DNA from: a virus
Taxonomy: Duplodnaviria; Heunggongvirae; Uroviricota; Caudoviricetes
Direction: 5' to 3' (one strand)
DNA length: 4,478 nucleotides
Virus record (IMG/VR): IMGVR_UViG_2681813227_000017
Positions 66 through 4,478 of this stretch are shown piece by piece; positions within the stretch are counted from its first letter, which is position 1, and every line of letters starts with the position of its first letter. The translations under genes and the position numbers were made by a program. The notes beneath the pieces are model-generated. The model was not told where the DNA came from. It searched no databases and saw only the letters and a list, made by a program, of their open reading frames with translations.

Positions 66-1055
66 ATGAAGAAAAAATACGAACTGGTTGTTAAAGAGAT
101 AAATAATTACCCGGATAAGATTGCTGTTACTGTGGCACTTGAAATTGGCGGGCATCCGTCGTTGTTGTTGCCACATGTGGCGATTAGTCTTGACCGTACT
201 GAAGGTGCCACGCTGGAGTTCTACGAAGCTGAGGCGAAAAAACAGGCGAAGCAGTTTTTCATGGATATTGTTGCCGGGTTATGCGAAGGGGATGAACCGT
301 CACCGGAAAAGCGCCCCGTAATTTTAGATGCGCAGGATGTATTGATAACCTACAAAGGAAAGCTACCGGGAAGAATTACTTGTTCTCTGAAGATGCCGCC
401 GTCAACACTGCGGTCAGAAAAAGATGATGTTGAATCGCGTATTGAAAAACTGGAGTGCTATATCGCTGAATTGAAAAAAAGCACCCCAACAAAAAATGAG
501 GTGCTTGCAGCAGACGAAATGAAAGAAGCTATTCCTGATCGCGCGGCGAATCTAAGCTGCGCTTCATGGTTGAAAGAGCATCTTCAGCAGCCTGAAAAAA
601 AACGCCGCGATGAGCAGTTTGCTGCGTTTTACGATTATTGCCGGAAAGTGATGAGCAGAAATCTCGCAGAGTGTTTCAGTATTCATAATGATAATTTCAG
701 TGACCTGGAATGGGAGTGTAACCGGCCATCCTTTGTTGTATCCGGTGATGCTGGGAAAATAACCATCTCAGAAAATGGAAAAGTAACACCGCCATCGCAC
801 CAGCATAGTGAGGAGCTCATTGAATTTGCCATTGATTACCTGAAGAACAATAAAAAGCAGGGGCTGATGAAGTGCATTGGTCGTTGCATGGGATATCTGC
901 AGATAGCTGCTGAGATTGAAGCGCTGGCCAGTGGTGCGGACAAGGATGCAGTTGTGCGGGAGGCTCTTCTTCGTGATTTTGATAATCCGCCCTTTAAAAA
1001 AGTGCCGGCTTACTGGTTTCATCCAGGACTGACTTATCTTAAAGGACGTATATAA
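66..1055 (+). CDS. Hypothetical protein, 329 aa, probably soluble; function unknown. Candidate accessory (moron) gene just upstream of the endolysin.
   Basis: Uninterrupted 990-nt ORF starting at the first in-frame ATG after a stop at 3-5; GGGGAG at 51-56 sits 9 nt upstream as a possible RBS. No N-terminal hydrophobic segment and no motif I recognise (no Walker A, no CxxC pairs). Composition looks more AT-rich than Rz or terminase. Same strand as the lysis genes, 42 nt before the endolysin start. Confidence 0.6.
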   Translation: MKKKYELVVKEINNYPDKIAVTVALEIGGHPSLLLPHVAISLDRTEGATLEFYEAEAKKQAKQFFMDIVAGLCEGDEPSPEKRPVILDAQDVLITYKGKLPGRITCSLKMPPSTLRSEKDDVESRIEKLECYIAELKKSTPTKNEVLAADEMKEAIPDRAANLSCASWLKEHLQQPEKKRRDEQFAAFYDYCRKVMSRNLAECFSIHNDNFSDLEWECNRPSFVVSGDAGKITISENGKVTPPSHQHSEELIEFAIDYLKNNKKQGLMKCIGRCMGYLQIAAEIEALASGADKDAVVREALLRDFDNPPFKKVPAYWFHPGLTYLKGRI

Positions 1056-1097: not shown

Positions 1098-1631
1098 ATG
1101 AACACCAAAATCAAATACGGCCTGTCGGCTGCCGTTCTGGCGCTGATTGCCGCTGGTGCGCCTGCGCCTGACATTCTCGACCAGTTTCTGGATGAAAAGG
1201 AAGGTAACCACACCACGGCATACCGTGATGGTGCGGGGATCTGGACCATCTGCCGTGGTGCCATCATGGTGGATGGTAAACCTGTTGTTCCAGGCATGAA
1301 GTTGTCGAAGGCAAAATGCGCTCAGGTTAACGCCATTGAGCGTAATAAGGCGCTGGCATGGGTGGAGAAAAACATCAAAGTGCCATTGACCGAACCACAG
1401 AAAGCGGGGATTGCGTCATTCTGTCCGTACAACATTGGCCCCGGTAAGTGTTTCCCGTCGACGTTTTATAAACGAATTAATGCAGGCGATCGCAGGGGGG
1501 CGTGTGAGGCGATTCGCTGGTGGATTAAGGACGGTGGCAGAGACTGCCGTATTCGCTCAAACAACTGTTACGGTCAGGTATCCCGTCGCGACCAGGAGAG
1601 TGCGCTGGCGTGCTGGGGAATTGACAGATAA
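1098..1631 (+). CDS. R: SAR-type endolysin (phage lysozyme of the T4-lysozyme / glycoside hydrolase 24 type)
   Basis: The translation has the E-x8-D-x5-T catalytic spacing (EGNHTTAYRDGAGIWT). The N-terminus has a Gly/Ala-rich weakly hydrophobic stretch (YGLSAAVLALIAAGAPAP) followed by Pro, which fits a signal-anchor-release domain better than a cleavable signal peptide. It lies directly upstream of Rz/Rz1. No clear Shine-Dalgarno precedes the ATG. Confidence 0.88.
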   Translation: MNTKIKYGLSAAVLALIAAGAPAPDILDQFLDEKEGNHTTAYRDGAGIWTICRGAIMVDGKPVVPGMKLSKAKCAQVNAIERNKALAWVEKNIKVPLTEPQKAGIASFCPYNIGPGKCFPSTFYKRINAGDRRGACEAIRWWIKDGGRDCRIRSNNCYGQVSRRDQESALACWGIDR

Positions 1632-1929: not shown

Positions 1930-2397
1930 ATGAACCGCGTACTGTGCGTGGTCATCATTGCCCTGCTGGTGGCCTGTGGTGCGCTTAGTCTGGGGCTGAA
2001 TCATTACCGTGATAACGCCATAACCTACAAAGAGCAGCGCGATAAAAAAGTCAGTGAGCTGGAGCAGGCAAATGCAACCATTACTGATATGCAGCAGCGC
2101 CAGCGTGATGTTGCTGCACTTGATGCCAGATACTCGAGGGAATTAGCCGATGCGAGAGCTGAAAATGAAACTCTTCGCGCTGACGTTGCCGCTGGTCGTA
2201 AGCGCCTGCGGATCAACGCCACCTGTCCAGGCTCCGTGCGTGAAGCCCCCGCCACCTCCGGCGTGGATAATGCAACCGGCCCCCAACTGGCAGACACCGT
2301 TACACGGGATTATTTCACCCTCAGAGAGCGGCTGATGACGATGCACAAGCAACTGGAAGGGGCACAGGACTATATCCGCACTCAGTGCCTGAAATAA
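1930..2397 (+). CDS. Rz: Rz inner-membrane spanin (i-spanin)
   Basis: 155 aa with an N-terminal signal-anchor segment and a charged coiled-coil-like body. Long stretches match lambda Rz as I remember it (NHYRDNAITYK, ITDMQ.RQRDVAALDA, RDYFTLRERL). A second ORF is embedded in its +1 frame. Confidence 0.92.
   Translation: MNRVLCVVIIALLVACGALSLGLNHYRDNAITYKEQRDKKVSELEQANATITDMQQRQRDVAALDARYSRELADARAENETLRADVAAGRKRLRINATCPGSVREAPATSGVDNATGPQLADTVTRDYFTLRERLMTMHKQLEGAQDYIRTQCLK
2150..2335 (+). CDS. Rz1: Rz1 outer-membrane lipoprotein spanin (o-spanin), fully embedded in Rz in the +1 frame
   Basis: 61 aa with a lipobox (VSAC, Cys20) and a proline-rich mature part (CVKPPPPPAWIMQP...GIISPSE) that matches lambda Rz1 closely by recall. 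The embedded arrangement is the same as in lambda. Confidence 0.9.
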   Translation: MRELKMKLFALTLPLVVSACGSTPPVQAPCVKPPPPPAWIMQPAPNWQTPLHGIISPSESG

Positions 2398-2747
2398 GTT
2401 TTGTTGATGCGCCGTATCGTCGCTGTATTCCCTCATTAACAGAGACCGCAGCCCGACAGGGAGACTCCTCTGCGCGAGTGTGCGGGGATAATCAAAAACG
2501 ATACACACCGGGGTTTACCGCGTTAACGGAGCGCGGCGTTGTCCCCTCATAGTCGCCTGTCCGGTGCGATGGTGGAAGAAGCCGGATGTTTATCACTATT
2601 AATTGATGACACAGAAATGGATTCATTGAATTTCAGCACGTTTTTGTATTCGTGTTATTGAACATCTGTTTATTTTACTTTTAACATATTGATAATAAAA
2701 AGAGCTGTAAATCTTTAGATGAGTCGATTTTGTCCGGGGAAGTTCAA

Positions 2748-2888
2748 ATGGATTTTATGCTGACGGTTTCTGGTGTGGTTATCCTGTCCATTGCTTATAC
2801 TGCAGATAAATATGGCTGCCATTTGTTATCACGTATTGGCGCTTATTGTTCGTTGATGCTGATTTTCTCGTCGCTTTTTTTTGAGTAA
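2748..2888 (+). CDS. Small hydrophobic peptide, 46 aa (MDFMLTVSGVVILSIAYTADKYGCHLLSRIGAYCSLMLIFSSLFFE); candidate small membrane protein
   Basis: Not in the ORF track because it is short. GGGGAAG at 2735-2741 lies about 6 nt upstream of the ATG, with an AT-rich region further upstream. Two hydrophobic segments. A 17-bp AT-rich near-palindrome (2889-2905) follows the stop. The only support is the RBS and hydrophobicity. Confidence 0.3.
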   Translation: MDFMLTVSGVVILSIAYTADKYGCHLLSRIGAYCSLMLIFSSLFFE

Positions 2889-3020
2889 GTTATATTAATT
2901 ATAACAAATAATTTTCTGTGTTATTTTTTCAGGCTATCCCGTCAGAGGGGAAGCCTGTACTGCCGGGGAGCGAATGGAAAACTGATGTGTCCGGTAACTG
3001 CGTGTTCTGTGAACACCATG

Positions 3021-3206
3021 TTACTTAATTATGTAATTCATACCCGAACTCTCTGTTGACAGCCTTCTTCTGCAGGCTTCAATAACCCACGCTGAAAAGT
3101 TTCCTGAACCTTTCAGATCAAGAGCGATGTTAATTTGTTCAATCATCTGGTTTGGAAATCGGATGTTGCGGGTTGTTGTTCTGCGGGTTCTGTTCTTTGA
3201 TGACAT
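3021..3206 (-). CDS. Small ribbon-helix-helix-like DNA-binding protein, 61 aa; resembles DUF3950/YlcI-type proteins found upstream of terminase genes in E. coli prophages (from memory)
   Basis: Minus-strand ORF MSSKNRTRRTTTRNIRFPNQMIEQINIALDLKGSGNFSAWVIEACRRRL..., with a basic N-terminus, a short beta-strand-like segment (NIRFP) and two helices, as in Arc/MetJ/CopG folds. GGGGAA is about 5 nt upstream of the ATG (which is CAT at 3204-3206 on the + strand). It is convergent with the 2748-2888 peptide and divergent from cos/Nu1. Confidence 0.55.
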   Translation of the reverse strand: MSSKNRTRRTTTRNIRFPNQMIEQINIALDLKGSGNFSAWVIEACRRRLSTESSGMNYIIK

Positions 3207-3353
3207 AATGTTTCCCCATATTCAGTGTTGCTGATTTGTATTATCTGAAGTTGCTTTTACGTTAATTTGATGCAGATCAATTAATACGATACCTGCGTCA
3301 TAATTGATTATTTGACGTGGTTTGATGGCGTAGATGCACGTTGTGACATGTAG

Positions 3354-3370
3354 ATGATAATTATTATCAT
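3354..3370. promoter_or_regulatory. Perfect 17-bp palindrome ATGATAAT-T-ATTATCAT; its core TGATAATnATTATCA matches the 7-1-7 Fur-box pattern. Candidate Fur box or operator.
   Basis: Read directly from the sequence: 3355-3361 TGATAAT, centre T at 3362, 3363-3369 ATTATCA. About 150 bp upstream of the minus-strand RHH gene start and about 35 bp before cosN. Several TAATTGAT-like inverted copies also lie at 3262-3309. Confidence 0.3.
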
Positions 3371-3405
3371 TTTGCGGGTCCTTTCCGGCGATCCGAGCGG
3401 TTACG

Positions 3406-3417
3406 GGGCGGCGACCT
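3406..3417. other. cosN: cosN: the 12-nt cohesive-end sequence GGGCGGCGACCT of the lambda type (terminase nicking site)
   Basis: 3400-3450 reads GTTACG|GGGCGGCGACCTCGCGGGTTTTCGCTATTTATGAAAATTTTCCGG, which matches the lambda right-end/left-end junction as I recall it, base for base across about 45 nt after the nick. The flank before it (GGGTCCTTTCCGG, about 3374-3390) resembles the lambda right-end region where cosQ lies. Confidence 0.85.
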
Positions 3418-3443
3418 CGCGGGTTTTCGCTATTTATGAAAAT

Positions 3444-3562
3444 TTTCCGGGAACCATGTCCGGTTTCTCTGCAAGTTAACTACATAAAAAATATAAAAAC
3501 AGGTTTTCCGTGAACCGGACATGCGCAAAAAATAGACATATAAACCGGACATGACCGGTTTT
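3444..3562. promoter_or_regulatory. cosB: cosB-like terminase small-subunit binding region: three copies of a CATGTCCGGTT(T) element (candidate R3, R2, R1) with an A/T-rich spacer that may be an IHF site
   Basis: CATGTCCGGTTT at 3455-3466 in one orientation; its reverse complement GAACCGGACATG at 3512-3523 and AAACCGGACATG at 3542-3553. The one-inverted, two-direct orientation pattern mirrors lambda R3 versus R2/R1. An A/T-rich stretch at 3471-3500 sits between the first and second copies. Identity to lambda ends exactly where lambda R3 would begin. Confidence 0.6.
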
Positions 3563-3600
3563 GTGCTGATTGTGAGGTAAGAGTTTTTGCGAGGTGAGGA

Positions 3601-4110
3601 GTGGCTACGCAGACTGAAGTTGCCAGGCATTTGAGTCTGACCGATCGCCAGCTTCGCAGATTGCAGAAATTGCCGGGTGCTCCGGTCTCGAATAAGCGAG
3701 GACAACTGGATCTGGATGCCTGGCGTGATTTTTACATATCGTATCTGAGGAGAAGTAAAAACGATGTGCCTGATGGCGATAGCGAAGACGACTATGAAGA
3801 AAAGTTACTCATTGCCAGATGGAAGTTGATCGAAGAACAGGCAATCGCCCAGCAATTAAAAAATCAGGCGTCCGAAGGAAAGCTTATTGACACCGGATTC
3901 TGTATTTTTGCCCTCAGTAAGCTGGCAATGGCGTTATCCAGTACGCTTGATTCCATCCCTTTATCCATGCAGCGACAGTTTCTTGATTTAACACCGCGCC
4001 ATCTTGACCATCTGAAAACCCTTATTGCGAAGGGGGCAAATCAGTGTGCGCGGGCAGGGGATAAATTACCGGATTTACTCGATGAATATATCAGAGCAAC
4101 AACTGAATAA
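3601..4110 (+). CDS. nu1: Terminase small subunit (Nu1-like)
   Basis: 169 aa starting at GTG 3601, the first start after an in-frame TGA at 3595-3597; GAGG lies at 3590-3593. The C-terminal half matches lambda Nu1 by recall (FCIFALSKLA...LSMQRQF...RHLD...LPDLLDEYI versus lambda FCTFVLSRIA...LSVQRRF...RHVD...IPGLLSEYI). The N-terminus has the helix-turn-helix region in a divergent form. Confidence 0.92.
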   Translation: MATQTEVARHLSLTDRQLRRLQKLPGAPVSNKRGQLDLDAWRDFYISYLRRSKNDVPDGDSEDDYEEKLLIARWKLIEEQAIAQQLKNQASEGKLIDTGFCIFALSKLAMALSSTLDSIPLSMQRQFLDLTPRHLDHLKTLIAKGANQCARAGDKLPDLLDEYIRATTE

Positions 4111-4478
4111 TATGATGGCTGCCGTTTCGGTTGCGCTGCAGCCTCTGGTCAGGGTTGTACCGATGACGGCAGTTGAATGGGCTGATCAAAATTATTATCT
4201 GCCTAAAGAATCCTCATACGGTGACGGCGAATGGAAAACTCTGCCATTCCAGATCGCCATTATGAACTGTATGGGTAACGACCAGGTTCGCACGGTTAAC
4301 CTGATTAAATCTGCCCGTGTTGGCTATACAAAGATGTTGCTGGGGGTGGTCGGGTATTTTATTGAGCATAAATCCCGAAACAGTCTGCTTTTTCAGCCCA
4401 CGGATTCTGCCGCTGAAGATTTTATGAAGTCTCACGTGGAGGCGACGATTCGGAACGTGCCATGCCTGAAAGACCTTT
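4082..4478 (+). CDS. A: Terminase large subunit (gpA-like), N-terminal part; runs off the 3' end of the window
   Basis: My own translation from ATG 4082: MNISEQQLNNMMAAVSVALQPLVRVVPMTAVEWADQNYYLPKESSYGDGEWKTLPFQIAIMNCMGNDQVRTVNLIKSARVGYTKMLLGVVGYFIEHKSRNSLLFQPTDSAAEDFMKSHVEATIRNVPCLKDL. It matches the lambda gpA N-terminus (MNIS..., TAVEWAD.NYYLPKES, KSARVGYSKMLLGV, YFIEHK, PTD...FMK.HVE). It overlaps the Nu1 3' end by 29 nt in another frame, as in lambda. It is absent from the ORF track because it has no stop in the window. Confidence 0.92.
   Translation, partial: MNISEQQLNNMMAAVSVALQPLVRVVPMTAVEWADQNYYLPKESSYGDGEWKTLPFQIAIMNCMGNDQVRTVNLIKSARVGYTKMLLGVVGYFIEHKSRNSLLFQPTDSAAEDFMKSHVEATIRNVPCLKDL

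Follow-up and report, generated by a model that had tools for sequence, protein, structure and literature searches.

A Fur box accompanies cosQ, the packaging termination signal, in most of the lambda-type cos sites that we surveyed. In 60 of 81 sites, including those of lambda, 434, phi80 and N15, a palindrome with at most four mismatches to the Fur 7-1-7 consensus ends 3–7 bp before cosQ, and its position holds despite a wholly different upstream flank, cosQ–cosN spacer and small terminase. The copy described here lies in a 4,478-nt stretch of viral DNA, analysed at its full length and called the window below. The interest of the finding rests on the conservation of the box beside cosQ and not on the site itself, which is already known as a Fur site from E. 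coli K-12 prophages. Because it has been known since the 1990s, the window's own instance is an ordinary one; among 5426 complete E. coli genomes, 3018 carry the same 101-bp segment, with about 5000 copies in all. The conservation beside cosQ appears to be undescribed in the searchable literature, where we found no open-access paper mentioning Fur together with cosQ, and nothing on ynfO with Fur or on nohA with ChIP.

The palindrome and the packaging junction around it

The window is the late/packaging junction of a lambdoid prophage (Table 1). A search with its 1.7-kb core (2400–4100) gave a match of 100% identity in E. coli strain UTAK-1. A lambda-type cos sits between the DUF3950 gene and the Nu1 gene, and the role of its cosQ element in packaging termination has been described (PMC4669245). 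To the right of cosN, the cosB-like repeats comprise CATGTCCGGTT (3455–3465), two copies of AACCGGACATG (3513–3523 and 3543–3553) and CATGACCGGTT (3550–3560). They are arranged like R3, R2 and R1 of lambda cosB but differ from them in sequence, and by analogy with the lambda layout they are putative binding (R) sites of the small terminase. An Rfam scan of the window returned nothing relevant.

Table 1. Features of the window (coordinates count from its first nucleotide).
Feature	Coordinates	Strand	Basis or detail
DUF1327 protein	66–1055		Pfam
Phage lysozyme	1098–1631		Pfam
Rz	1930–2397		Pfam
Rz1	2150–2335		Pfam
DUF3950 (YlcI/YnfO family) gene, the "RHH gene" of the earlier note	3021–3206	−	Pfam DUF3950, E = 9e-19; RefSeq annotation
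Sigma-70 promoter-like match toward cos/Nu1	3343–3370	+	−35 GTGACA 3343–3348, 16-nt spacer, −10 TATCAT 3365–3370
Cluster of overlapping matches to the classical 19-bp box GATAATGATAATCATTATC (extended Fur site)	3350–3374		Consensus match
Fur box, ATGATAAT-T-ATTATCAT	3354–3370		Consensus match; 15-mer same as in DLP12, 434 and phi80
cosQ GGGTCCT, packaging termination signal	3376–3382	+	Same heptamer annotated as cosQ in phage 434
cosN region, with cohesive-end sequence GGGCGGCGACCT at 3406–3417	3401–3422	+	Identical to annotated lambda/DE3 cos
cosB-like repeats	3455–3560		Families D7, I1, I3, I7
Small terminase subunit, Nu1 family, GTG start	3601–4110	+	Pfam Phage_Nu1, E = 4e-18
Large terminase gpA, N-terminal part, runs off the window	4112–4478	+	Pfam GpA_ATPase, E = 2e-19

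Between the endolysin and Rz genes, a gap of about 300 bp (1632–1929) holds a terminator-like hairpin with a T-run (about 1725–1760) and a 57-residue open reading frame (1755–1928) without a Pfam match, an unusual insertion within the lysis cassette. The AT-rich segment at 2590–2940, between Rz and the DUF3950 gene, takes the place of bor and its neighbours in lambda-type phages. It contains a 52-residue hydrophobic open reading frame (2730–2888), also without a Pfam match, which may be a cargo gene.

The sequence at 3354–3370, ATGATAATTATTATCAT, is a perfect 8-1-8 inverted repeat that contains, at 3355–3369, the 7-1-7 palindrome TGATAAT-T-ATTATCA that the earlier note had pointed out. The distances given there, about 150 bp to the minus-strand RHH gene and about 35 bp to cosN, also hold: we measured 148 bp to the start of the RHH-like DUF3950 gene at 3206 and 36 bp to the cohesive end. 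The note had overlooked cosQ, which begins 5 bp past the palindrome. In the whole window, the palindrome is the sole match to the consensus TGATAATNATTATCA at two or fewer mismatches, and shuffled windows gave a mean of 0.04 such matches, with at least one match in 7 of 200 shuffles.

We judged the resemblance to Fur sites by consensus matches and published bit scores rather than by a weight matrix. On this basis the site agrees fully with the 7-1-7 consensus (14 of 14 positions); 17 of 18 positions agree with the 9-1-9 consensus AATGATAATNATTATCATT and 16 of 19 with the classical 19-bp box. Several registers of the 19-bp box overlap here: 16/19 on the minus strand at 3356–3374, 15/19 on the plus strand at 3350–3368, and 15/19 at 3356–3374.

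Fur binding at the K-12 copies and the site in lambda

The same site occurs in two prophages of E. coli K-12, DLP12 and Qin, where it has been studied as a Fur target. Chen et al. (2007, PMC2189734) placed a cluster of three to four overlapping Fur sites at each of nohA and nohB. The nohB prediction (25.3 bits, coordinate 579824) is the third strongest cluster of K-12, and the nohA prediction (22.3 bits, coordinate 1634624) lies at position −233; an oligonucleotide from nohA was gel-shifted by 150 nM purified Fur (PMC2189734). As cited in that paper, a nohA fragment was recovered by in vivo selection (Vassinova and Kozyrev 2000), and its table entry for nohB cites a 1994 Fur titration study (Stojiljkovic et al.). 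A review also places nohB among the Fur-regulated genes. After conversion of the published coordinates to the current K-12 record (offsets 1976 and 777, checked on nohA and gpmA), the nohA and nohB predictions both hit the central base of the Qin and DLP12 palindromes, respectively.

The DLP12 (nohB/nohD) 15-mer is identical to that of the window. The two sequences agree from far upstream of the box through +12 from its centre and differ at +13 (C versus T). The Qin (nohA) 15-mer is the lambda version, TGATAATCATTATCA, whose sole difference from the window's is the central base (C versus T). Like the window's site, both K-12 sites lie 5–6 bp before cosQ and about 233–239 bp before a Nu1-type gene. 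The prophages themselves are less alike: DLP12 and Qin are cryptic, whereas that of the window has apparently complete lysis and terminase genes, and its cosB and Nu1 type differ from theirs. Fur binding at the K-12 sites is shown or strongly supported. Because the window's palindrome is homologous to these tested sites, sharing its 15-mer with DLP12 and having a homologue in Qin that Fur gel-shifts, binding there is well supported, and as a statement about binding the earlier reading of the palindrome as a Fur box was correct.

The earlier note knew of no such palindrome at this position in lambda. In fact lambda (NC_001416) carries TGATAATCATTATCA at 48452–48466, 6 bp before cosQ (48473–48479), and the distance to cosQ and the upstream DUF3950-type gene are the same as in the window. 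The records of lambda, DE3 and 434 do not, as far as we found, annotate the site. The 15-mers of 434 and phi80 are identical to the window's, and the N15 version of the box is CGATAACTATTATCG; in phi80 and N15 the box stands directly after a rightward gene. A second cos family with the box includes phages mEp213, mEp043 and LLS and a Klebsiella phage.

Conservation of the box beside cosQ

The 81 cos sites of the survey are distinct, true lambda-type sites and were gathered without using the palindrome. The cosQ–cosN pattern alone, scanned over genome contigs, gave results dominated by chance matches in GC-rich genomes. Mismatches to the 7-1-7 repeat were bimodally distributed: 53 of the 81 sites had two or fewer, and the 21 sites without a box were at background level, with six or more. 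Among 14768 background windows in the surveyed loci, seven reached two or fewer mismatches. When the two cos families were compared, their boxes were 80% identical, while cosQ–cosN spacers and upstream flanks were at 25%, the random level; the six unselected positions flanking the box were 61% identical.

These figures bear first on the suggestion of the earlier note that the palindrome might be an accident of AT-rich DNA. The region is indeed AT-rich, and the hairpin that the palindrome could form is weak (−4 kcal/mol). Against a background of 7 in 14768, however, 53 of 81 is too strong a conservation for such an accident, and the box persists where the flanks have fallen to random-level identity; we give this explanation practically no credence. 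The same weak hairpin makes a structural role unlikely, and at −4 kcal/mol we rejected a function as a DNA hairpin or cruciform.

To see which positions are conserved, we aligned 28 representatives with unrelated upstream flanks on the centre of the box. Information content was negligible to the left of −14 and high between −7 and +10. Conservation tracked the Fur 9-1-9 motif at one position after another, G at −6 and C at +6 among them, and the positions that are independent of how the loci were selected (A at −9 and T at both +8 and +9) matched the extended Fur motif as well. Farther out, at −13 to −9, the 28 lineages share a weak TGCAA-like motif (0.2–0.9 bits per position). The window has TGTAG there (3349–3353), and the motif agrees only in part with the first hexamer of the classical 19-bp box.

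A different reader, either a phage protein or another host factor, could in principle recognise this motif, Fur binding then being a by-product of resemblance. The link to cosQ would suit a reader concerned with cos, and the TGCAA-like motif, which agrees with the Fur consensus in part, can be counted on the same side. Yet the conservation follows the Fur 9-1-9 motif even at the unselected positions −9, +8 and +9, the Qin copy binds Fur experimentally, and nearby phage proteins vary between lineages. We regard another reader as improbable.

The neighbouring RHH-like protein of the DUF3950 (YlcI/YnfO) family had been proposed as such a reader, with the palindrome as the operator of its gene. 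The palindrome does lie on the appropriate side of this gene, 148 bp upstream. However, about 30 box-bearing loci have no DUF3950 homolog within 1.5 kb upstream, the upstream gene of phi80 and N15 is a different, rightward one, and a closer inverted repeat makes a better operator candidate. That repeat, ATCAATTAATACG / CGTCATAATTGAT at 3276–3288 / 3296–3308, precedes the DUF3950 gene by 70–100 bp, and lambda and 434 have conserved it. With the box present in so many loci that lack the homolog, the proposal fails, and we hold it to be very unlikely; the DUF3950 gene is a neighbour of the box and not its partner. Small terminase type likewise varies among the box-bearing loci, and the box follows no one type. 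Its constant partner is cosQ.

This partnership also limits the comparison that the earlier note drew with stx1. The stx1 promoter of Shiga-toxin prophages is Fur-repressed, and the box there controls a defined cargo-gene promoter. Both are Fur boxes on lambdoid prophages that could couple prophage expression to iron, and to that extent the analogy stands. It does not extend to cargo-gene control: the window's box has cosQ as its constant partner, and the comparison is a loose one because no cargo gene travels with it.

The box is not universal. The lambda-like phages 2B8 (LR595859.1, right end; L248) and 4A7 (LR595864.1; L249) have cosQ and cosN and lack the box, as do satellite-like cos sites and several prophages. 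Both 2B8 and 4A7 were deposited as complete phage genomes, and on that ground we assume them to be viable; as they have cosQ without the box, it is not essential, and these absences argue against its being a required subsite of cos. In both phages unrelated sequence, ending in CCAGAACGGCTGAC or CCAGAACGCCTGC, directly abuts cosQ; they are in effect natural deletions of the box.

A further arrangement was seen in six viral contigs (L006, L015, L018, L045, L068 and L073), each with two inverted lambda-type cosQ–cosN sites about 550–900 bp apart. In L018 the pair lies at 3767–3804 on the plus strand and 4668–4706 on the minus strand. L018 and L045 have a Nu1-like gene between the paired sites, with 33–50% identity to Nu1-type proteins. 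None of the six contigs has a Fur box, and in one cos copy of each pair a terminator hairpin, GGCCGGAGAAATCCGGCTTTTTTT, takes its place 2–3 bp before cosQ. These paired sites look like the cos regions of phage satellites (PICIs).

Transcription, cos and the possible roles of Fur

A rightward promoter-like match overlaps the box with its spacer and −10 element. It scores 10/12, judged against the consensus only, and random-flank controls gave an expectation of about 0.6 of 29 lineages at this score. The window, with its 434/DLP12-type flank and its GTGACA-16-TATCAT, is an exception in this respect. Across the 29 flank lineages there was no conserved −35 element in either direction, and the best box-overlapping promoter scores in both directions equalled those obtained when the flanks were swapped for random DNA of the same loci. 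We accordingly rejected a conserved promoter as a companion of the box.

Lambda differs from the window in its central C and in its flanks, and its version, GTGATA / TATCAC, is a poor promoter match. Taken from lambda to the window, the three changes (GTGATA to GTGACA, central C to T, and TATCAC to TATCAT) each improve the match to sigma-70. The 434/DLP12/window type may thus be a better promoter than lambda's.

We think it reasonably likely that the palindrome is a genuine high-affinity Fur–Fe2+ operator, conserved yet dispensable, which stands at the left edge of the cos/terminase region and silences rightward transcription. In an iron-replete cell, one or two Fur dimers would occupy 3350–3374 and cover the spacer and −10 of the rightward promoter. 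Bound Fur may also block RNA polymerase arriving from the left without antitermination. In a lysogen, the transcript across cosQ, cosN and cosB into Nu1 and A would then be silent, and scarce iron would derepress transcription into these two genes. Late transcription antiterminated by Q would pass the bound Fur. We infer that the effect of Fur in this window is most likely repression of rightward transcription across cos into the terminase genes. Against the regulatory part of this model speak the lack of a conserved −35 element and lambda's poor promoter match. A purely transcriptional role, moreover, has no need of a tight link of 3–7 bp between box and cosQ, and the benefit to a phage of expressing terminase under iron limitation is not apparent.

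The tight link would be natural if Fur acted at the box in DNA handling instead of transcription, which we consider possible but unlikely. Bound Fur might slow the translocating terminase just before cosQ and make termination surer, or it might protect or anchor the right end. The box would on this account mark the end of the chromosome that is packaged last, which in lambda is the first to be injected. The constancy of the box next to cosQ across unrelated flanks, spacers and small terminases speaks for such a role, as does the lack of a conserved promoter alongside it. The lineages concerned include phi80 and N15, in which a rightward gene ends just before the box. The Feiss laboratory worked with cos fragments that begin at lambda 48442 or 48446 and always include the box, so that these constructs never separated it from cosQ.

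Other observations weigh against a role in DNA handling. The box is missing from 2B8, 4A7, several prophages and the satellite-like cos sites. Its centre lies anywhere between 11 and 15 bp from cosQ, a spread that speaks against a fixed protein–protein geometry. The accessible cos literature defines cosQ, cosN, I2 and cosB but no element on the left side of cosQ, and a dependence of lambda on fur is, to our knowledge, unreported.

A broader form of this idea, to which we give a similarly low probability, is that Fur serves lambda-type cos as an unrecognised host accessory factor and is more than a promoter operator's ligand. It would, if this doubtful proposal is right, improve packaging termination, insulate or protect cos, or tie terminase and cos activity to iron status. 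Equally tentatively, such a service could explain why lambda, phi80, N15 and the mEp213/mEp043 group have all retained the box next to cosQ. The closest parallel is the IHF site I1 in lambda cosB, which like the box is a site for a host DNA-binding protein within cos and is conserved in lambda-like phages. I1, however, has a demonstrated role in the start of packaging; the Fur box is not known to take part in packaging, and some phages do without it.

A Fur site that ranks among the strongest predictions for E. coli is part of the lambda cos region, and it stays next to cosQ among phages with unrelated DNA around it. If Fur does affect packaging or terminase expression, iron availability, for example in the gut, would be linked to phage production and transduction.
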